Program-made: the position numbers and the translations under genes | Shown here: piece by piece, positions 25,053-59,957 of the stretch | Layout of the letters: each line of letters begins with the position of its first letter | How positions within the stretch are numbered: position 1 is the stretch's first letter | The notes under the pieces: model-generated | What the model saw: the letters and a program-made list of their open reading frames with translations, nothing else | What the model was told of the DNA's origin: nothing | Databases searched by the model: none | Assembly (NCBI GenBank): GCA_964349395.1 | Contig: CAYGGA010000001.1 | Location: forward strand, 65,991 to 129,990 | From: an uncultured Gammaproteobacteria bacterium | GTDB lineage: Bacteria; Patescibacteriota; Microgenomatia; Woykebacterales; RBG-16-39-9b | Direction of reading: 5' to 3' | DNA length: 64,000 nucleotides

Positions 25053-26300
25053 ATGGATTTAAACTCTCTCCCCACTGGCCCGGGGGTGTACTTACTAAAA
25101 CGGGGCCGAAAAGTTTTATATGTGGGCAAGGCTCTAAATATTAAGGAAAGAGTCAAAACCCACTTGCTTGCGAGTAGACCTTTGTCTCCCAAAGCTTTTC
25201 AGATGAGGAGCGAAGTTAATAAAGTTGACACCATATCAGTACGCAGTGATTTTGAAGCTTTGCTTTTAGAAATCAATCTCATCAAAAAATTATCCCCAGA
25301 GTACAATATCAAACTTCGTGATGACAAAGATTACCTTTATCTAAAAATCACTCAAGAGGAGTTTCCGCGCGTCTTAGCAGTGCGAAAAAGAGATTTGGAG
25401 GGAAGTAAGTACTATCTAGGGCCTTTTCCCAATGCCACGCTTGTTCGTAAAACGATAAAAAATCTGAGGCGAATTTTCCCCTATTGCTCTGAGAAACAAA
25501 AAAACGGTAAGCCCTGCTTCTACTACCATCTGGGTCTGTGTTCAGGACCCTGTAGTGGGAAAATAAATGAAAAAGACTACCAGAGAATGATTAAGAACTT
25601 AATCATTTTTCTGGAAGGCAAAAGTGAGAAATTACTTATTAGTTGGCAAAAAGAGATGGAGAAAAAAAGCCAGCAGAAGAAGTTTGAAGATGCAGCCCAT
25701 CTGCGAGACAGAATTCAAGGAACCACATACCTTTTGCAGGAAAATAGAACCTTTGACTATTTGAAAAATCCAGATTTATTGGGTGAGCTCATCTGGGCTG
25801 AGACGCAGGAGCTTAAAAAGCTTTTGGGAATAAAGAGTCAGATTCATCGAATCGAATGTTATGATATCTCCCACATTCAGGGATCCCAAATGGTGGGGTC
25901 GATGGTGGTCTTTTATGATGGTCAGCCGGATAAATCAGAGTACCGTCGCTTCCGCATCAAAAGGATCGGGGGCGTAGATGATTATGCCAGTTTGCAGGAA
26001 GTACTGCGTCGGCGTTTCCACAATGATTGGGCACTACCAGACCTTTTGGTGATTGATGGTGGCAAGGGGCAACTCAATGCTTGCCTGGAAGTTTTGAAAG
26101 AGCTAAATATAACTATTCCGATGATCTCTCTAGCTAAAAGAGAAGAGGAGATTTACACCCAAGATGGATCTAAGATAAGATTGGAAAGGACCAATGAGGG
26201 TCTGAAACTTATTCAAAGATTGCGGGATGAAGCCCACCGTTTTGCGATTACCTACCACAGGAAACTTCGCAGCGATGCACTACTGAAACTACATGCGTAA
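25053..26300 (+). CDS. uvrC: excinuclease ABC subunit C, short form lacking the C-terminal (HhH)2 domain
   Basis: 415 aa. GIY-YIG (GVYLLKRGRKVLYVGKA). UVR domain. RNase H-like endonuclease domain (ECYDISHIQG...RDEAHRFAITYHRKLR). Confidence 0.85.
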   Translation: MDLNSLPTGPGVYLLKRGRKVLYVGKALNIKERVKTHLLASRPLSPKAFQMRSEVNKVDTISVRSDFEALLLEINLIKKLSPEYNIKLRDDKDYLYLKITQEEFPRVLAVRKRDLEGSKYYLGPFPNATLVRKTIKNLRRIFPYCSEKQKNGKPCFYYHLGLCSGPCSGKINEKDYQRMIKNLIIFLEGKSEKLLISWQKEMEKKSQQKKFEDAAHLRDRIQGTTYLLQENRTFDYLKNPDLLGELIWAETQELKKLLGIKSQIHRIECYDISHIQGSQMVGSMVVFYDGQPDKSEYRRFRIKRIGGVDDYASLQEVLRRRFHNDWALPDLLVIDGGKGQLNACLEVLKELNITIPMISLAKREEEIYTQDGSKIRLERTNEGLKLIQRLRDEAHRFAITYHRKLRSDALLKLHA

Positions 26301-26694
26301 ACTTGCCCAGTCATTTTTTATTTCTCTGATTGCTTTTTTCATAGTCGCCCAATTTATCCCTGGAATTGACTATGGTGGTGAAAACGTAAACCTGCTTTTG
26401 GTGAGTTTTACTTTTGCCCTCCTGGCAGTCTTTATCAAACCATTTATTAAAATGATCTTGCTGCCTTTCAATCTGGTCACTTTTGGGGCCGTGGGCGCGC
26501 TGATAAACTGGGGAATTATCTTCCTTCTTACTTTTATTTTGCCTTTCTTTAGTATTGGTAGTTTCAATTTTCCGGGGTACGACTTGGTCGGATTTATGAT
26601 TCCCTCTTTTACCTCAACAACATTAGTAACAGCCTCTATTCTCTCTATTGGAGTAAGTTTCACTAGCGCCTTGATCTATTATTTGATGAAATAA
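26293..26694 (+). CDS. small 4-TM membrane protein (DUF360/YvlD-like?)
   Basis: 133 aa, hydrophobic. FIPGIDYGG motif weakly resembles the DUF360 family. Confidence 0.4.
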   Translation: MRKLAQSFFISLIAFFIVAQFIPGIDYGGENVNLLLVSFTFALLAVFIKPFIKMILLPFNLVTFGAVGALINWGIIFLLTFILPFFSIGSFNFPGYDLVGFMIPSFTSTTLVTASILSIGVSFTSALIYYLMK

Positions 26695-30160: not shown

Positions 30161-30178
30161 TGGTGAGCCGCAGAGGAA
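30161..30178 (-). repeat. 18-bp direct repeat identical to the 3' end of tRNA-Lys (att-like remnant)
   Basis: tggtgagccgcagaggaa is identical to 30280-30297 (acceptor/T-arm 3' portion plus CCA). It lies 101 bp downstream of the tRNA. Confidence 0.6.
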
Positions 30179-30279: not shown

Positions 30280-30355
30280 TGGTGAGCCGCAGAGGAATCG
30301 AACCTCTAACCGTCTCCTTAAGAGGGAGATGCTCTACCAATTGAGCTAGCGGCCC
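30280..30355 (-). tRNA. tRNA-Lys(CTT)
   Basis: 76-nt cloverleaf. Anticodon stem TCTCC/GGAGA. Loop CTCTTAA. T-loop GGTTCGATTCC. Encoded CCA. Confidence 0.85.
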
Positions 30356-41482: not shown

Positions 41483-41830
41483 GTGAGACTGATTCTAAAC
41501 CTTCTGATTGGGACGCTGGGAGTTTGGATTACGGGCAGGGTTTTGCCTGGGGTTCATCTGGACAGCTTGCAGGCAGCACTAATCGTGGCCATCCTACTAG
41601 GAATTGTAAATATTGTGGTTAAACCGATTCTGGTGGTGCTAACTTTGCCGATCACTTTAGTTTCTCTTGGACTATTTCTTTTTGTCATCAATGCGTTGAT
41701 GATTTTACTGGTCGACGTCTTTGTGAGTGGGTTTAGTGTGGACAATTTTTGGTGGGCCTTGCTTTTTAGTCTCGTAGTCTCTGTTGTCACGTCGTTTCTT
41801 AATTCTCTTTCCAAACCTGCAGCCGAGTAA
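41483..41830 (+). CDS. DUF360 / phage-holin-family-4-like 4-TM membrane protein
   Basis: 115 aa. LLIGTLGVWITGRVLPGVHLDSLQAALIVAILLGIVN is the typical DUF360 N-terminus. Confidence 0.6.
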   Translation: MRLILNLLIGTLGVWITGRVLPGVHLDSLQAALIVAILLGIVNIVVKPILVVLTLPITLVSLGLFLFVINALMILLVDVFVSGFSVDNFWWALLFSLVVSVVTSFLNSLSKPAAE

Positions 41831-41873: not shown

Positions 41874-44063
41874 ATGAGATTATTAATTGTAGCCAATCGA
41901 CTGCCGATAACCTTGGTAGAAAACCAAGATAAAATCTCCATCCATGAGAGTTCGGGCGGGTTAGTGAGTTCAATTGGCTCCTATGTCAAAGGTCTAGGAA
42001 AAGATTTGTATGCTAAAGACTCTTATCTGTGGGTGGGGTGGCCTGGGGGAGACTATCCAAAAGATAAAAAAAGGCAAGTTCAAACTATTTTTGAGAAAGC
42101 CAACAGCTATCCTGTCTATTTAAATCAAGACCAGATAGACAACTTTTATCTGGGATTCTGTAACAAAATTCTCTGGCCACTTTTTCATTATTTCCCAACT
42201 TATTGTGAGTTTTCCGAACCTTACTGGGAAAGCTATAAAGAAGTTAATAGACTGTTTTTGGACAAGGTGCTAAAAAACTACCATCACGATGATGTAGTTT
42301 TAATTCAAGATTACCATTTTATGCTCCTTCCTCAAATGCTTAGGGAAGCGCGGCCAAAAGCGACGATTGGTTTTTTCCTGCATACCCCTTTCCCCTCTTT
42401 TGAGATTTTTCGTCTTTTGCCCAAAAGCTGGCGTGAAGCGATTTTGGAAGGTTTACTGGGAAGTGACCTGATTGGTTTTCATACCCAAGACTATAGTGAT
42501 CATTTTTTGCGATGTGTTTCCCGAATTTTAGGTCAAGAACACCAGCTGGGGCGCTTTTCCTATCAAGAAAGAGTGGTAGAGACATCTGTTTTACCAATTG
42601 GCATTAATTTTGATAAGTTTCATACGTCTTTCAAGCAACCTAAAGTCAAAAAAGAGGAGAAAAGACTTAAAAAACTCATTGGTGATCGAAAGACAATTTT
42701 TTCATTGGATAGACTTGATTACACCAAAGGCCTCAAACAAAGGTTGGAGGGGTTTGAACTCTTTTTAAAAAAACACCCCGCTTTTCATAAAAAAGTCACC
42801 TTAGTCATGGTAGTTATTCCCTCTAGGCAAGATATCCCTCAGTATTTCCAGATCAGACAAGATATTGAGCTTCTAATCAGCAAGATCAATGGCCAGTTTG
42901 GGGATCTAGACTGGACACCCATAAATTACCTCTATAGATCCTTAACTGAAGAAGAATTGACGGCTTTGTATGACTTGGCCGACATTAGTCTAGTGACTCC
43001 CCTGAGAGATGGAATGAATTTAGTTGCCAAAGAATTTATTGCCTCTAAAAGAAGAACCGGGGTTCTCATACTGTCTGAATTTGCTGGTAGTGCCCAGGAA
43101 CTAAAAGAAGCGATCATCGTCAATCCTCATAGTATCACCGAAATTGCTGACGCTATCTACGAAAGTTTGCAAATAAGCCCTACGAAACAGAAGGAAAATC
43201 TCACTGCAATGCAGGCAAGGCTAAAATATTATGATGTCAAACACTGGGCCGCGGAATTCATTGACCAAATCCTCACGGTCAGGCAAGATCAACCCAAACT
43301 GCGCTACTTGCAAGAGGAAAAAAATCTAGTCTCCCTGCAGCAAAAATATCAGCGCGCTACCAATCGACTATTTTTAATTGATTATGATGGCACTTTAACG
43401 CCTTTTTATTCTCATCCAAATTTAGCAAAATTGCCTTCTAAAGCTGCCTCGATTTTGAGAAAACTAGTAAAAGATGAAAAAAATACCGTCTATATTGTCA
43501 GCGCTCGTGACCGGTTCAGTTTGGATACTTGGTTTAGCAATCTAAAAGTCGGGCTGGTCGCAGAGCACGGTGCTTTTATCAAAGATGTCACAGAAGGGTG
43601 GCAATTTCTACATACTATCGAAAAATCCTGGAAGGAAAAAATTCGACCCTTTTTTGAAAAAGCTTGCGACCGCTTGCCCGAGTCTTTTATTGAGGAAAAA
43701 GAATTTTCTATTGTCTGGCACTATCGCAAAAGCGATCCCAAAATCGCTGAGATAGTTGCTTTAGAACTAGCGGATGATTTAAAAAGCTTAACTTCCAATA
43801 TGAATCTTCAAGTTTTGCTGGAGCATAAAGTAGTGGAAGTCAAAAGTTCTTTGGTGAGTAAAGCAGCGGTAGGTTACCACCTTTTAAGTCAAAAGAGTTA
43901 TGAATTTATTTTCTCGATTGGCGATGGCAAGGCGGATGAAGACTTGTTTAGTATGTTGCCTCCCAAGGCGATTACGGTGAGTGTTGGCCAGCAGCAGTCT
44001 TCGGCCAAATACTATCTTCCTGATCAAAAAGAAGTGATCAAAATCCTGGAATCCTTAATTTAA
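41874..44063 (+). CDS. otsA: bifunctional trehalose-6-phosphate synthase (GT20) / trehalose-6-phosphate phosphatase (HAD)
   Basis: 729 aa. N-terminal OtsA-like LWVGWPG...HDYHL region. C-terminal HAD motifs LIDYDGTLTP and GDGKADEDLF. Confidence 0.9.
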   Translation: MRLLIVANRLPITLVENQDKISIHESSGGLVSSIGSYVKGLGKDLYAKDSYLWVGWPGGDYPKDKKRQVQTIFEKANSYPVYLNQDQIDNFYLGFCNKILWPLFHYFPTYCEFSEPYWESYKEVNRLFLDKVLKNYHHDDVVLIQDYHFMLLPQMLREARPKATIGFFLHTPFPSFEIFRLLPKSWREAILEGLLGSDLIGFHTQDYSDHFLRCVSRILGQEHQLGRFSYQERVVETSVLPIGINFDKFHTSFKQPKVKKEEKRLKKLIGDRKTIFSLDRLDYTKGLKQRLEGFELFLKKHPAFHKKVTLVMVVIPSRQDIPQYFQIRQDIELLISKINGQFGDLDWTPINYLYRSLTEEELTALYDLADISLVTPLRDGMNLVAKEFIASKRRTGVLILSEFAGSAQELKEAIIVNPHSITEIADAIYESLQISPTKQKENLTAMQARLKYYDVKHWAAEFIDQILTVRQDQPKLRYLQEEKNLVSLQQKYQRATNRLFLIDYDGTLTPFYSHPNLAKLPSKAASILRKLVKDEKNTVYIVSARDRFSLDTWFSNLKVGLVAEHGAFIKDVTEGWQFLHTIEKSWKEKIRPFFEKACDRLPESFIEEKEFSIVWHYRKSDPKIAEIVALELADDLKSLTSNMNLQVLLEHKVVEVKSSLVSKAAVGYHLLSQKSYEFIFSIGDGKADEDLFSMLPPKAITVSVGQQQSSAKYYLPDQKEVIKILESLI

Positions 44064-46099: not shown

Positions 46100-46218
46100 T
46101 TTCTCCCTCCAAGTGTAGACATTTTACTAAACTATTTCCCCAAAGTCAATACTATGGGTCCATGAGATGGTTGGGTAGACAAAGTCCGAACCTTCTACCA
46201 AAGTTTATAGGCCCTAAA

Positions 46219-46776
46219 TTATGGTTTTATAAAAGTTGATGCTGAGACTACTAAAAAGATGCCAATGGCATTTAAAATAAAGGAAACAAGCAGGAATTTA
46301 TAAGTCTTCATTTGGGAAATACCCATCAAACTCACCCCAACTTCATCAGGAAATGGTGAAGCAATGATAATCGCACCGATAACTGGTAGTGTCCAACTAA
46401 AATATCTGGAATGCAAGGCCTTAGTTAAGTGGTTGCCACCTAACCTTTCATAAATGGGTGTTATCTCCTCCAAAAGATTGTCTTTCAGGAACTTAAAAAT
46501 TATTAGGTCACCTATAACAGCACCCAAACCTGCAACAATACCAAGTTCTATGGCTGACAATCTTTCAGCTAGAATTAGTAATATTATTGCCCCTGTGGTT
46601 ACAGTAAATGTAGAGACAAACAACATACCGGCAAGAAATGCGCCCAGATAACCTAAATCTCCCAGGTTTAAAAGAAACGAGTGGAATGTTTCATAACCAG
46701 ACAACACTAGAGCTGCCATAATACCAACTGTAAGAAAGAGGAGATTTTTATATTTCCAAATTCGCCAGTATTTCAT
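46219..46776 (-). CDS. YqaA/DedA-like integral membrane protein
   Basis: 185 aa, about 5 TM. Gly-rich TM cores. Confidence 0.5.
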   Translation of the reverse strand: MKYWRIWKYKNLLFLTVGIMAALVLSGYETFHSFLLNLGDLGYLGAFLAGMLFVSTFTVTTGAIILLILAERLSAIELGIVAGLGAVIGDLIIFKFLKDNLLEEITPIYERLGGNHLTKALHSRYFSWTLPVIGAIIIASPFPDEVGVSLMGISQMKTYKFLLVSFILNAIGIFLVVSASTFIKP

Positions 46777-46863
46777 ACAATCATCATACCAGAGGTTCAG
46801 TTAACTTATTAGGGGAATTAAAAATTGAGGCTAAACTAATATAATGGTATAATTAAAAGGATT

Positions 46864-46940
46864 GCGCCCATAGCTCAGCGGATTAGAGTACTTGGCTTCG
46901 AACCAAGGGGTCGGGGGTTCGAATCCCTCTGGGCGCGCCA
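46864..46940 (+). tRNA. tRNA-Arg(TCG)
   Basis: 77 nt. Acceptor GCGCCCA/TGGGCGC. Anticodon stem CTTGG/CCAAG. Loop CTTCGAA. T-loop GGTTCGAATCC. Confidence 0.85.
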
Positions 46941-46991
46941 ATATCAACCCTGAAGCTGGCCTTCTGGGCCTAAGGATAGACTTTTACACTT

Positions 46992-47068
46992 GGTGGCTGT
47001 AGCTCAATTGGCAGAGCAGCAGATTGTGGATCTGCTGGTTGTGGGTTCAAGTCCCATCAGCCACCCCA
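46992..47068 (+). tRNA. tRNA-His(GTG) with G-1
   Basis: Extra 5' G pairs with discriminator C. Anticodon stem GCAGA/TCTGC. Loop TTGTGGA. Confidence 0.85.
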
Positions 47069-47126
47069 AGAACCTATAGTATTGACTTTTTCCCAACTTT
47101 AATTTATACTTCATTCAATCTGCACA

Positions 47127-47549
47127 TTGGAGAAACAAATGCTGTATTCCTCTTCTGAGGTTTGGGAAGATGTCCCTGGTGAATGGAGTAAGTTAATCAA
47201 GAGCAGGAAGTACCGCTTTTGGTCTGATTTAACCAATTGTGGGTATTTTGTTAGCCGAGAGACCGTGCGGCATCCATGGCACCAGTTTGCTGCTGAAGCC
47301 TATGGTGAAGAGGTTGTTCGCTTTGGCGATGGGCTTCTTCAAGTAAATGGAGTTGAGGATATTGCCGTCGACCCCAACTTACTGGAAGTTCATCACGGAG
47401 AAGCTATCGACTGGGATGTCTTTGAAGATAAGCTTCTAGAATTGTTAGCAAGTGTCTATGGCCTTGCTAATCCAAAGATCATTCGCCACGAGGAGCAATG
47501 GCAAAGAGTCAAGCCCTATATTCCTTGGGCCCGCGACACCGACCTCTAA
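47127..47549 (+). CDS. hypothetical protein
   Basis: 140 aa. No recognisable motif. Followed by repeat copy 1. Confidence 0.45.
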   Translation: MEKQMLYSSSEVWEDVPGEWSKLIKSRKYRFWSDLTNCGYFVSRETVRHPWHQFAAEAYGEEVVRFGDGLLQVNGVEDIAVDPNLLEVHHGEAIDWDVFEDKLLELLASVYGLANPKIIRHEEQWQRVKPYIPWARDTDL

Positions 47550-47608
47550 AATCGGGCCGTTAACGCAGAAATGTACGACGGCCTTAATTATTTTCGCTAA
47601 CATAAAAA

Positions 47609-47692
47609 ATTCGAACTCTGTCTACCCAGCCACCCCACGGTTTTTAGGCACAAATTTACATACCCCTGATAAGACAATTGAACCTTTTAGGT
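47609..47692. repeat. ~85-bp intergenic repeat with terminal inverted repeats, copy 1
   Basis: TTCGAACtcTGTCTACCCAGCCACCCCACGGTTTTTAGGCACAAATTTACATACCCCTGATAAGACAATTGAACCTTTTAGG. Near-identical to copy 4. Confidence 0.8.
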
Positions 47693-47773
47693 ATAAAGAA
47701 ACCCCAGACAGTGCATTGCTGCAAAGCTGGGGTATAGTCTCGAAGTTGGCTAAAATGGGTGGCTATTCGGGGG

Positions 47774-48199
47774 TTATCCTTCTTGTGCCCTTTCTTGTGC
47801 CACCTCAAAGTTTATATTTGGGGTGAGTTTACCTGACCGCAGCTTGAGATACATCTCCCGGATGCTTACCATGCTTTGTCCACGAATCCGCAAGACGTAG
47901 TGGTCACCCTGTTCATCAAGATCACCTTCGGTGTCCCCAACTCTGTAGATCCCACAAATTCGTTTGGGTCGGAGGGGGAACCACTCGTAGAAAGAGATTT
48001 CATCAAGGTAATCCTTGATAATCTCGGGAACTGGCTCGGTCAGCTCATGAAGATAAACGTGCCATCTGCCTTTATCCCTAAAGAGAGTGAGCTCAGGAAG
48101 GGAGTACACTGTCCATTCCTGACCCCTATCTTTCATGACTCGTTCTTTGTATCCCGAGATACTCTCCACGCCTTCTTTGAGATAAACAGTTATCGACAC
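47774..48199 (-). CDS. hypothetical protein (cassette gene)
   Basis: 141 aa. Flanked by repeat copies 1 and 2. Confidence 0.45.
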   Translation of the reverse strand: MSITVYLKEGVESISGYKERVMKDRGQEWTVYSLPELTLFRDKGRWHVYLHELTEPVPEIIKDYLDEISFYEWFPLRPKRICGIYRVGDTEGDLDEQGDHYVLRIRGQSMVSIREMYLKLRSGKLTPNINFEVAQERAQEG

Positions 48200-48274
48200 T
48201 CTACTTCTCCTGTTTTTGGTAGAAACATTTTACCACATAGAACGAGCGAAGTCAATTGTTATAGGATATAGAAA

Positions 48275-48356
48275 GTTCGTACTTTGTCTACCCAGCCACC
48301 CCAAGCTTTTTAGGCACAAATTTAGATACCCCTGATAAGACAATTGAACCTTTAGC
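48275..48356. repeat. ~85-bp repeat, copy 2
   Basis: GTTCGtACTTTGTCTACCCAGCCACCCCAaGcTTTTTAGGCACAAATTTAgATACCCCTGATAAGACAATTGAACCTTTAG. About 93% identical to copies 1 and 4. Confidence 0.8.
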
Positions 48357-48399
48357 CAAAGAAAAACCACTGTAACACTATTGATACAGTGGTTTGCTC

Positions 48400-48732
48400 T
48401 CAATCCTCCATCATCCCAAAGACCCGCAGTAGAATCCCCTCCTCGCCTTGGTGTCTGCCCAAAAGTTTCATTGGGGCCTTTCCAGGGTGCTTCCAGGCGA
48501 GCGGGTCGAGGTGTTTACCATCCCCAACGGCAATAACTTGAGCATCGTCTACTACAAGCTCTCTGGCCCGCCTTTCATCTTCGGCAGCAACCAGATAGGT
48601 CAGGACGCCTTCCGCTGGGAAGTCATCAGGATCATAGTTCAGGTCTTCCTATTCCTTTCCAAAGAGTGCATTTACACCGCCAATAATGGCTGCGTAGTCA
48701 CCCGCGGCAGTCAGGCAATAAACTTTCACCAC
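48400..48732 (-). pseudogene. DUF2007-like small protein gene interrupted by an in-frame TAG
   Basis: Manual translation: GTG start, 27 codons, TAG at 48649-48651, then 84 more codons in the same frame (..LVAAEDERRARELV..). Not in the M-start ORF track. Confidence 0.35.
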
Positions 48733-48837
48733 ACCCTACCTCATTGTTTTTTCTTGCTGTATTATACTATTTAATGGGTAACTTACAAGGAAATATGGGA
48801 GTAACTGCTCTACATTTGGCTTAGAGCCTGGATTATT

Positions 48838-48915
48838 GGTTCGAAGTCAGCCTTCTTAAGGACCCCAGCCTTTTTAGGCACGAATTTTAATATCACTGAT
48901 GAGAGGATTGAACCT
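48838..48915. repeat. ~85-bp repeat, copy 3 (diverged)
   Basis: GGTTCGAAgtcag...CTTTTTAGGCACgAATTTtaATAtCaCTGATgAGAggATTGAACCT. Shares end motifs and the TTTTTAGGCAC core. Confidence 0.6.
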
Positions 48916-49690
48916 ATTTTTGTGCCACGATAACTAATCGATGTCTTTTTAACTCTATTCCTTTGTCCGATTCATGTTCCTGCGAGTATCTTTCTAACAA
49001 ATCTTTATCCTTTCCGGTGTCGTAATCTTCAAAAATGGGCACACCTTGTAAAAAGGCATCCAGGTCTTTCTGTGCTAGGTAGTACTCTGAATAGTAAAAA
49101 TCTTTAATCAAAATGATCTTGAAACCAATCTTTTCTAATTCGTATTTGTCTTTTTCAAGTCGAGACTTGTTCCAATTTCCGTAGTCCTGGCCACGCTCAA
49201 AATTCTTCTTTAGCTCAACAGCATCTTTTTCCCCAATCCCAATTTCTAAATAGTAGCCATCAGTGTTCAACAAACGGAAGTATTCTTGGTAAAAACTTGG
49301 CCCACGGCGGTTAAAGATAATATCAAAGCTAGAGTCTTCAAACGGGGTTTTCTCGGCATCACCCAATATAAAAGAAACACTAGTGATATTAAGTTCCTTA
49401 AGCTTTTGATTAGCGACCTTCAAAAGTTCGGCTGAGGAATCAAGTCCGACGATCTTATTAAAATGGTCAGCAACGGAAAAAGCAAACTTACCATCTCCGC
49501 AACCAACGTCAAGAGCAACCCTTTTATCACTGCTCAGCTCCAAGAGCCTAGACTTAAAAATTTCTTCGGGAACACCGTTTTGGTAAACTGAAGAGTATTT
49601 TGGGTCATTAGTTCCATAGGCGTAACCACCAAACTTCTTGGCTACTTTATCATAAAATTCTTTCCCACCAGTTGAGCTGCTCATGAACAA
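48914..49690 (-). CDS. class I SAM-dependent methyltransferase
   Basis: 258 aa. Motif I LDVGCGDGKF. Acidic motif II. Confidence 0.75.
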   Translation of the reverse strand: MFMSSSTGGKEFYDKVAKKFGGYAYGTNDPKYSSVYQNGVPEEIFKSRLLELSSDKRVALDVGCGDGKFAFSVADHFNKIVGLDSSAELLKVANQKLKELNITSVSFILGDAEKTPFEDSSFDIIFNRRGPSFYQEYFRLLNTDGYYLEIGIGEKDAVELKKNFERGQDYGNWNKSRLEKDKYELEKIGFKIILIKDFYYSEYYLAQKDLDAFLQGVPIFEDYDTGKDKDLLERYSQEHESDKGIELKRHRLVIVAQK

Positions 49691-49713
49691 AGTATATCAG
49701 AGAGTAAGGAAAT

Positions 49714-49799
49714 AGGTTCGAACTTTGTCTACCCAGCCACCCCACGGTTTTTAGGCACAAATTTACATACCCCTGATAAGACAATTGAACCTTTTAGGC
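49714..49799. repeat. ~85-bp repeat, copy 4
   Basis: AGGTTCGAACTTTGTCTACCCAGCCACCCCACGGTTTTTAGGCACAAATTTACATACCCCTGATAAGACAATTGAACCTTTTAGGC. Confidence 0.8.
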
Positions 49800-49850
49800 A
49801 TAAAAGAACCCCAACTCTGTTTTGTAAAGTTGGGGTTAACTAACAAAAAG

Positions 49851-50273
49851 TTACATTTTTTCTCCGCAGGATTTACAAATTTCGCGATGCAGATGCTTCA
49901 AGCAAGTCAGTTTACCGCATCTGGAGCATTTATGAAGACCGACTGTCCTCGACCAGTCCTCCTCAAATACAGGGGCATCCCAGGTTGAGTTTTCACCCAT
50001 GTTGTGAAATGAACCCTTTCTAACTAAAATTTTCACTGGACCACTGCTGGCAGATTCATTACACCCATTGATATGACAGGGATATCGATGGTAGTGCGCT
50101 GTCATGTCACGAGACCACTTTTCTCTCTTTGCCTTTTCTTTTTCCTGCTCTATCTCATGGTCACTTTTTCCTTGATGTGATGCTGATCTACGCGCTTCTT
50201 CTTGCATCAACCTATCCTGTATTCTCTTCTTCCAATCTTCCATTGGAGTCCTCCAAGGAATTTTGGAAATCAT
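49851..50273 (-). CDS. Cys-rich (zinc-ribbon-like) hypothetical protein with charged N-terminal coiled coil
   Basis: 140 aa. C-terminal CHINGC ... CSRCGKLTC ... CKSCG clusters. Confidence 0.45.
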   Translation of the reverse strand: MISKIPWRTPMEDWKKRIQDRLMQEEARRSASHQGKSDHEIEQEKEKAKREKWSRDMTAHYHRYPCHINGCNESASSGPVKILVRKGSFHNMGENSTWDAPVFEEDWSRTVGLHKCSRCGKLTCLKHLHREICKSCGEKM

Positions 50274-50336
50274 AGCCTAAATGAAGCTAGTTGTCAAGTA
50301 CTACAGGTTTATGTTGAACAAGTTAAGTGAGAAAAT

Positions 50337-50441
50337 AGGTTCGAACTTTGTCTACCCAGCCACCCCAGTATAGACGTAACCCTACACGAAACCTAAGCTA
50401 AAATTGTGAACCACCCCAAGGTTTTGCCTTGATTGAACTAT
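50337..50441. repeat. ~85-bp repeat, copy 5 (left half intact, right half replaced or diverged)
   Basis: AGGTTCGAACTTTGTCTACCCAGCCACCCCA then unrelated sequence. A GATTGAAC end-like motif appears at about 50431. Confidence 0.55.
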
Positions 50442-50626
50442 TCTGGACCTTTTCCAAACTCAGTCTCTGATTGGGACAATTGGGAAAGCAATGTAGAAGT
50501 GAGAACAAAAAGGTGAACTGACAGGCTATTCTCAATTGGGCCTGAATGTAATAGAATAGGGACCACATCAACCTGCCCATAAAGGTAGGTAATATTTTAA
50601 CCCTAAAAAATGAAAATATCTTAATT

Positions 50627-51292
50627 TTGGCTCCCCATCCAGACGATGAAGTCTTGGGATGTGGTGGGTTGATTTCCAAACTACAGTCCCAGGGGTGCAA
50701 AATTTATGTACTTTATTTTAGTTTAGGAGCCTTGCGTGAATTTTCACCACTGTCCTCAGTGGGACTTGCCACCCGACTGGCTGAACTAGAAAAATGTGCT
50801 AAATTTCTGAAATACTCTGATTATCACCTAGCTTTTCCACCGCAAAAATCACTGTATCTAGACCCAGTCGGAATGCGTGAGGTGATCCATGCGATAAGTG
50901 ACAATGAATCTGGGGTGAGTTTGGCTAAGCTAAAACCTGGTTTGGTCCTGTTACCTTCTCCTCATGCTTCTCATCAAGACCATCGGTTGGTGGCTCAGGC
51001 AGCCATAAGTGCCTTGAAGCCTCAAAAAGGCCCCGTGCCAATAGTTTTAGTTTATGAAGAGAGCACTGATCAATGGACTGAAGGTAATCCTATAAAGCCA
51101 GATTTTTTCATAACTTTAACCGAGGCGCAATTGCGAGCAAAGGTCACCGCCCTGGGAATTTACAAGAGTCAGTTGCAAACTAAAGGCCAAGGTAGAAATA
51201 CTCAGACAGTGACAGCTTTGGCTAGATTGAGGGGCAGTCTGATTGGGACCAATCTAGCCGAAGCCTATCAAACTTTGCGAGTAATTATATGA
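50627..51292 (+). CDS. PIG-L/LmbE-family N-acetylglucosaminyl deacetylase
   Basis: 221 aa. APHPDDEVLGCGG signature. Confidence 0.8.
   Translation: MAPHPDDEVLGCGGLISKLQSQGCKIYVLYFSLGALREFSPLSSVGLATRLAELEKCAKFLKYSDYHLAFPPQKSLYLDPVGMREVIHAISDNESGVSLAKLKPGLVLLPSPHASHQDHRLVAQAAISALKPQKGPVPIVLVYEESTDQWTEGNPIKPDFFITLTEAQLRAKVTALGIYKSQLQTKGQGRNTQTVTALARLRGSLIGTNLAEAYQTLRVII

Positions 51293-59172: not shown

Positions 59173-59957
<785 letters not shown>

Follow-up and report, generated by a model that had tools for sequence, protein, structure and literature searches.

The window analysed here, i.e., the whole 64,000-nt stretch of contig CAYGGA010000001.1, contains a short array in which single genes alternate with copies of a repeat, next to a pair of tRNA genes. 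The centre of the repeat is CAGCCACCCCA, the same 11 nt, on the same strand, with which the neighbouring tRNA-His gene ends. On the basis of sequence comparison, we consider it probable, with moderate confidence, that these repeats of about 80–105 bp are attachment (att)-like sites of a site-specific recombination system targeting tRNA-His, and that they separate single-gene cassettes mobilised in trans. This interpretation is favoured because of the tRNA-identical core, the conserved arms, a fixed junction, the shared orientation of the sites, replacement between strains and half sites at the edges of the array. The array is best read as a reduced form of tandem integration at a tRNA gene, its units being single-gene cassettes without an integrase.

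Repeat copies and their tRNA-derived core

The repeats and the tRNA genes beside them are given below. The left half of a site is the part before the core on the plus strand, and the right half is the part after it.

46121–46199, minus strand: R0, an inverted, diverged left half and core (46199–46163; left half 46161–46199, nhmmer E 1.5e-10), continuing into a copy of the arm downstream of tRNA-His
46789–46835, minus strand: degenerate inverted right half between a VTT-domain gene and tRNA-Arg (E 0.003, about 32 of 43 positions identical)
46864–46940, plus strand: tRNA-Arg(TCG), found by ARAGORN and by the Rfam tRNA model (68.5 bits)
46993–47068, plus strand: tRNA-His(GTG), found by ARAGORN and Rfam; its last 11 nt (47058–47068) are CAGCCACCCCA
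47069–47110, plus strand: short arm ("type-2") that starts where the tRNA-His core ends, with an outward promoter-like site (TTGACT-17-TATACT)
47609–47685, plus strand: R1, full site with the left half before and the right half after its core (47627–47637); found by repeat finder, motif and profile searches
48275–48351, plus strand: R2, full site (core 48293–48303)
48838–48915, plus strand: R3, divergent full site (core GGACCCCA); found by repeat finder and nhmmer
49714–49792, plus strand: R4, full site (core 49734–49744), with the right half of R1 and the left half of R5
50337–50367, plus strand: R5, left half and core only, with unrelated DNA directly after CCCCA
50411–50441, plus strand: possible vestigial core with a shortened right end, CCACCCCAAGGTTTTGCCTTGATTGAAC; weak (profile E 3.5, read from the sequence)

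By repeat finder and direct reading of positions 47000–51200, R1, R2 and R4 are about 79 bp each and 90–100% alike (over 80–97 nt), and the genes between them are unrelated. The first-pass annotation had placed five copies of one element here: its positions were right and its consensus is exactly R4, but R3 is divergent (its left half has about 61–65% identity and its right half 76%) and R5 consists of the left half only. The inverted ends it described are present but short and imperfect, being 8 bp long (AGGTTCGA / TTGAACCT), or about 13 bp if a bulge is allowed. The sites end in AGGTTCGAAC and ATTGAACCT, and a conserved 16-mer, TTTTAGGCACRAATTT, lies within them. Such matches are far beyond chance: a 21-nt motif from the left half occurs five times in the window (0.01 expected in shuffles) and a 45-nt motif from the right half three times (0.00 expected). 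All five array copies share one orientation and occupy consecutive intergenic regions, and nhmmer finds no further copy above chance in the remaining 60 kb of the window, where about 60 other intergenic regions are empty.

The core ties the array to its neighbour. The 11-mer CAGCCACCCCA occurs five times in the window, always on the plus strand (the tRNA-His end, R1, R2, R4 and R5), against an expectation of 0.03. The likeness to the tRNA gene extends beyond these bases: when the left half is right-aligned with tRNA-His, 14 of the last 18 nt agree, a T-loop-like GGTTCRA motif lies upstream in both, and R2 has 13 nt in common with the tRNA-His end and its first flanking bases. The array thus has direct repeats identical to the 3′ end of an adjacent tRNA gene on the same strand, as a tRNA island does. 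The first-pass annotation had correctly named the tRNA pair (ARAGORN and Rfam agree), but the plus-strand 136-aa gene between tRNA-His and R1, the tRNA-His 3′ end as the repeat centre, R0 and the 46789–46835 piece were all absent from it. A tRNA pseudogene on the minus strand was rejected, as neither ARAGORN nor Rfam finds one.

Across the tRNA pair from the array, an inverted duplicate of the tRNA-His 3′ end and its promoter arm (47058–47110, plus) lies 0.9 kb away at 46121–46199 (minus). After its core, R0 runs into this copy of the tRNA-His downstream arm, where a promoter-like site (46149–46121) faces a 93-aa gene. The first 21 nt of the type-2 arm match the R0 flank at 18 of 21 positions, and the TTGACT −35 of the outward promoter-like site is in both. 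The proteins encoded after the two arms, of 93 and 136 aa, have no homology to each other. The mutually inverted cores of R0 and tRNA-His could support inversion of the segment with both tRNA genes. More speculatively, R0 and the right-half remnant, which flank the VTT-domain gene, may point to an older unit and possibly to an inversion between inverted cores.

Beyond the window, an exact 19-mer from the left half had a single match among 185,579 species-representative genomes, a chance one within coding sequence of a Poribacteria genome and away from any tRNA, and viral contigs scanned with three repeat patterns gave no match. Both open translations of the repeat were used as protein queries, with the aim of catching spurious open reading frames (ORFs) elsewhere, and produced no candidates.

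Mosaic sites, a strain variant and a related site

The halves of the sites do not always share a history. To compare them, identities were counted on either side of the final A of CCCCA, and the results are as follows (L006 is a strain variant and L011 a related locus, both described below).

R1 and R4: left half 90%, right half 100%
R4 and R5: left half 100%, right half 16% (unrelated)
R2 and L006: left half 100%, right half 72%
L011a and L011b: left half 90%, right half 36% (unrelated)
R0: left half followed by a duplicate of the arm downstream of tRNA-His

The two halves of a site assort independently of each other, and each switch falls directly after CCCCA. Three kinds of sequence follow this same junction, i.e., the full right half, the short promoter-bearing arm or unique DNA.

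The strain variant is a metagenomic contig, L006 (ENA ERZ27247820, k141_672421), which has no differences from the window over 46144–48304 (2161 nt) and parts from it at 48305, one base after the CCACCCCAA of R2. About 28% of positions differ in the rest of the site (48305–48351), and beyond it the terminator and the following 227 nt are unrelated to the window, so L006 has a different neighbouring cassette. A repeat-induced or k-mer misassembly is unlikely, because the common stretch carries R2-specific bases (GTTCGTAC and R2's own flank) and the join itself has only about 10–30 nt in common with other repeat copies. The exchange is recent, judging by the complete lack of substitutions in the 2.2-kb flank. 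Content between repeats therefore differs between strains, with the boundary at a repeat, in this single case; turnover of this kind had been suggested as a check on the first-pass annotation, and L006 provides it with its different right half and cassette beyond the R2 core.

Public contigs were looked up with six window proteins and two cluster members, and the exceptions to identity with the window were L006, L028 (two single-nucleotide polymorphisms) and L029. Metagenome assemblies tend to break at repeat copies, and both L006 and L028 end at or near the inverted R0 repeat. Taken together, the mosaic halves and the L006 variant support exchange at the core, but they do not prove an enzyme.

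A related site exists in other metagenomes. A degenerate 25-mer across the core (CCCCANNNNTTTTAGGCACRAATTT) found one true relative in Joint Genome Institute (JGI) metagenomes (L011, Ga0265296) along with two chance matches, and another contig, L029 (ENA ERZ27249422), extends it. The L011 site has the same core and a right half 80% identical to that of the window. On L011, an NYN-domain gene precedes a full site, which is followed by a terminator and by a gene of 131 aa on the minus strand (weak helix-turn-helix matches, Pfam E about 0.01); next come a promoter, then a left half with core, and finally an outward promoter. The window layout, in which a terminator, a gene on the minus strand, its promoter and a left half succeed one another, recurs in L011 and L029 around genes unrelated to those of the window.

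The L011 left half is longer, with hairpin modules between the terminal AGGTTCGAAC and the core. At 574–700 and 1262–1336 of L011, a perfect hairpin module, GGGTAGTCAGCTAAGCTGACTAAACCC, is inserted in the left half (minus-strand fold z-score −3.5), so the left arm of the related site tolerates insertion between its terminal motif and the core. In L011 and L029 the inverted-repeat motifs are kept and the interior length varies. After the half site, L029 240–600 (corresponding to the end of L011) has a TTGACA-17-TAAAAT promoter and then about 300 nt with no ORF or Rfam match. A strong terminator-like hairpin closes this part and is followed by ATTGAACCTT, the right-end motif of the repeat; the whole is possibly a non-coding cassette.

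Cassette genes and the rest of the window

Read in the direction of transcription (minus strand), a unit consists of a left half, a promoter, a gene, a terminator hairpin with T tract, a right half and a core. Units are 0.56–0.88 kb long and have one gene each, with its own promoter and terminator. The arrangement of one gene per site in a single orientation, which the first-pass annotation had proposed, is borne out by the layout of repeats and ORFs. The genes and signals of the array, together with the gene that precedes it, are as follows.

47139–47549, plus strand: 136-aa gene between tRNA-His and R1, a singleton in the protein collection
47701–47733, minus strand: terminator-like hairpin with a T tract, belonging to the 141-aa gene and reached by transcription shortly before R1 (read from the sequence)
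47774–48199, minus strand: cassette gene for a 141-aa ORFan, with a promoter-like site at 48255–48227 (TTGACT-17-TAAAAT with TG)
48400–48732, minus strand: cassette gene with one in-frame TAG (48649–48651) in a 110-codon frame, a promoter-like site at 48788–48761 and a terminator-like hairpin at 48365–48394
48914–49684, minus strand: cassette gene for a class I S-adenosylmethionine (SAM)-dependent methyltransferase (family scan)
49807–49837, minus strand: intrinsic terminator of the Cys-rich gene
49851–50243, minus strand: cassette gene for a Cys-rich 130-aa protein, with a promoter-like site at 50297–50269 (TTGACA-17-TATGAT)

The cassette genes are mutually unrelated, their GC content ranges from 0.39 to 0.53 (0.43 for the window), and all are singletons at 90% clustering. 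Used as a query, the 141-aa protein matched only itself, and the Cys-rich protein has no significant family match. The family scan agrees with the methyltransferase assignment made at first pass. The gene that had been called a DUF2007-like pseudogene does have one in-frame TAG, but it matches nothing in Pfam or NCBIfam.

Repeats lie 30–106 bp upstream of the minus-strand starts, a wider range than the 20–60 bp first given, and no full copy is more than about 20 nt from the T tract of a terminator. The promoter-like sites (10–11 of 12 consensus matches) are between repeat and gene. A promoter inside the repeat was rejected, as the good −35/−10 pairs are all outside it. For the methyltransferase gene, an extended −10 (TGATATACT, 49691–49699) ends 6 nt before the ATG and there is no Shine-Dalgarno sequence, which suggests a leaderless mRNA.

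Outside the array, Pfam assigns the window ORFs to housekeeping genes (e.g., ATP synthase, enolase, UvrABC, LexA, Lon and OtsAB), and the gene adjoining the array encodes a PIG-L deacetylase. At 90% identity, most proteins of the window are the sole members of their clusters. The source lineage is poorly sampled, its known occurrences being limited to one group of ENA and Logan samples and one unannotated NCBI contig. The fused trehalose-6-phosphate synthase/phosphatase OtsAB (41874–44063, plus) has best homologues only 49% identical among 5.8 billion clustered proteins; these were rejected as a route to orthologous loci, since at ≤49% identity they are too distant for synteny.

The window also holds possible traces of other integration events, which count in favour of the att-like reading. 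The only recombinase-related ORF is a fragment:

59173/59266–59904, plus strand: C-terminal fragment of a large serine recombinase (ORF of 212–243 aa), overlapping the 3′ end of tRNA-Pro (59883–59957, minus strand)

This fragment matches PHROG 95 "integrase" (E 1.4e-11, profile positions 364–562 of 651), and Pfam Zn_ribbon_recom falls below threshold. It comprises the zinc-ribbon and coiled-coil part only, the catalytic N-terminal domain being absent, and is probably the integrase stump of an element once inserted at tRNA-Pro. At tRNA-Lys (30280–30355, minus), the last 18 nt (TTCCTCTGCGGCTCACCA) are repeated perfectly at 30161–30178 (minus), 102 nt downstream of the gene, with a tRNA-D-arm-like AGCTCAGCTGGAGAG in between; this looks like a tiny att-bounded remnant of integration or excision at a second tRNA. 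Two small Phage_holin_4_2 genes (26293–26694 and 41483–41830, both plus) sit amid the housekeeping genes.

Mechanism, alternatives and known systems

If the repeats are att-like sites, the crossover core would be CAGCCACCCCA, the 3′ end of tRNA-His, and a cassette would be the unit between two cores, reading on the plus strand as a right half, a terminator, one gene (minus strand), its promoter and then the left half belonging to the following site. Two cores recombined by a tyrosine or large serine recombinase, whose gene would lie elsewhere, would allow cassettes to be removed, added or swapped. During such a move, a right half would stay attached to its upstream gene and a left half to its downstream gene. 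Where integration occurs repeatedly at a site already present, the internal junctions would have both arms, as R1–R4 do. It is from the sites, the identity of their core, the assortment of their halves, the strain variant and the related site elsewhere that we infer an enzyme acting on the core. A more far-reaching version is possible but tentative: that this is gene capture of a non-integron kind, in which an unlinked recombinase other than IntI acts in trans on self-expressing cassettes, using a site of about 80 bp derived from the tRNA-His 3′ end and its downstream flank.

Several observations weigh against recombination at att-like sites. Pfam scans of the window ORFs found no intact recombinase, intI or Phage_integrase in the 64 kb, and no recognisable inverted recombinase-binding sites surround the core. 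Simple serial integration predicts an attL-like junction in which tRNA-His is joined to a full right half; in its place, tRNA-His is followed by the 21-nt promoter-bearing arm that it has in common with R0. Only one variant junction was found among public contigs, all others being identical to the window. The repeat census covers the 64-kb window, and the repeat may be more widely dispersed in the genome. Finally, a sharp identity boundary marks where sequences differ, not where strands are cut, so homologous recombination via the 31–42-nt left half could produce the same picture.

The alternative that survives best takes up this last point. It holds that the repeats are inert scars, i.e., attL-, attR- or attP-type junctions of larger elements that once sat at tRNA-His and decayed to single genes, with variation now arising by homologous recombination only. 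In its favour are the tRNA-identical core, the single orientation and the tRNA-adjacent position; the window has no integrase, one cassette is a pseudogene, and R3, R0 and the right-half remnant at 46789–46835 have all decayed. Islands with degraded elements and scattered partial tRNAs have also been described (bioRxiv 10.1101/2020.12.28.424599). We nevertheless consider this explanation unlikely: three sites remain 90–100% identical over 80–97 nt with unrelated genes between them, tidy promoter/gene/terminator packages of 0.56–0.88 kb are hard to obtain by independent decay of multi-kb elements, and the L006 exchange, with its unchanged 2.2-kb flank, is recent.

Less probable still is a lineage-specific repeat like a miniature inverted-repeat transposable element (MITE) or a repetitive extragenic palindromic (REP) sequence, with the short inverted ends AGGTTCGA...TTGAACCT, which inserts after terminators and clusters here by accident. 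Like MITEs, REP sequences and bacterial interspersed mosaic elements (BIMEs), the repeat is small, has short (though imperfect) terminal inverted repeats and is intergenic near terminators, its full copies lying within about 20 nt of a T tract. L011 and L029 keep the inverted-repeat motifs around an interior of varying length, and metagenome assemblies break at the copies. Unlike such elements, it has no target-site duplication (the flanks of R1–R4 have no duplicated bases in common) and no stable imperfect palindrome, which is a REP/BIME trait. Its five copies form a tight cluster in one orientation and in consecutive intergenic regions, and the other 60 or so intergenic regions of the window have none. 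Half copies stop exactly at a fixed internal point, the core, where halves are also exchanged; the interior holds the 3′ end of the neighbouring tRNA; and the search of species-representative genomes gave nothing but the chance coding-region match. The MITE-like promoter delivery raised by the first-pass annotation fails on the lack of target-site duplications and on the position of the promoter-like sites, which are outside the repeat.

A cis-acting RNA or regulatory DNA element (e.g., a structure in an untranslated region, a small RNA, an insulator or a terminator module) copied by local gene duplication is very improbable. The constant place between a terminator and the next promoter would suit it, as would the one conserved 16-mer, TTTTAGGCACRAATTT. 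However, Rfam searches of the repeats matched only tRNAs, both at gathering thresholds and in E-value mode up to E 10, and RNA folds of most copies are no better than those of shuffles. Half copies exist and halves are exchanged, and local duplication does not account for the repeat, as the flanking genes are unrelated.

A sedentary integron, or a cluster of attC sites lacking integron-integrases (CALIN), with unusual attC sites is largely refuted and hardly credible: although the array has one gene per site in one direction, alike sites as in Vibrio-type arrays and many ORFans, it has no R″/R′ cores (RYYYAAC/GTTRRRY) but only a TTAGGC 10 nt from the centre without an inverted partner, the single-strand DNA folds of R1–R4 on both strands, proposed at first pass as a check for attC-type structure, are not significant (−1.8 to −8.4 kcal/mol, z-scores −1.5 to +0.6, no significant hairpin), the mosaic junction is mid-site and not at one end, the cassettes have their own promoters and terminators, and the window has no intI (which a CALIN does not require).

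The integron likeness noted at first pass is therefore one of outline. Unrelated, ORFan-rich genes in one orientation, one per site, are replaced at the strain level, and most of the site is at the gene's 3′ end. The exchange point, however, is mid-site, at a core derived from a tRNA. The array resembles an integron array functionally without being one. Plasmids of Acinetobacter carry another system of small gene modules between short sites, the Xer-dependent pdif modules, whose recombinase is encoded elsewhere. The small modules between recombination sites are alike in both, but pdif sites are 28 bp (11-6-11) with alternating orientation, and those described here are about 80 bp and direct. 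A dif/Xer site was itself rejected, as a resemblance to a XerD arm (TATGTAAA) in one copy is not conserved in the others.

Islands targeted to tRNA genes are normally multi-gene elements with their own integrase. The closer parallels are known tandem elements with partial tRNA or tmRNA repeats at their boundaries, including some that lack an integrase (PMC3146451; PMC5704250; bioRxiv 10.1101/2020.12.28.424599). In Dehalococcoides, a 20-bp repeat set in about 85 bp of conserved sequence delimits tandem ssrA islands, some of which are possibly cis-mobilizable (PMC3146451). Accretion of cis-mobilizable elements (CIMEs) gives tandem elements that lack an integrase (PMC5704250), and in the tycheposon islands of Prochlorococcus elements are stacked and accompanied by partial tRNAs and degraded integrases (bioRxiv 10.1101/2020.12.28.424599). 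As in these systems, the window has same-orientation direct repeats that equal the 3′ end of the target RNA gene and are stacked downstream of it, extra conserved sequence around the repeat, strain-variable content and units without a recombinase gene. Four differences stand out: the units here are 0.56–0.88 kb with a single gene, as opposed to several to tens of kb; none has integration or replication genes; full two-arm sites (80–100 nt) are kept at 90–100% identity; and the tRNA gene is not joined to a full right half.

To our knowledge, no well-characterised system other than integrons accumulates single genes as mobile cassettes. For tracing the recombinase responsible for the array, the site is now concrete, i.e., the core CCACCCCA with about 31 nt on its left and about 48 nt on its right. 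If the repeats are indeed tRNA-His-targeted att-like sites, the array would bridge integrons and tRNA islands, with sub-kilobase, single-gene, integrase-less units separated by conserved tRNA-derived sites, and would point to ordinary integration at tRNA genes as a possible evolutionary origin of cassette-style gene capture.

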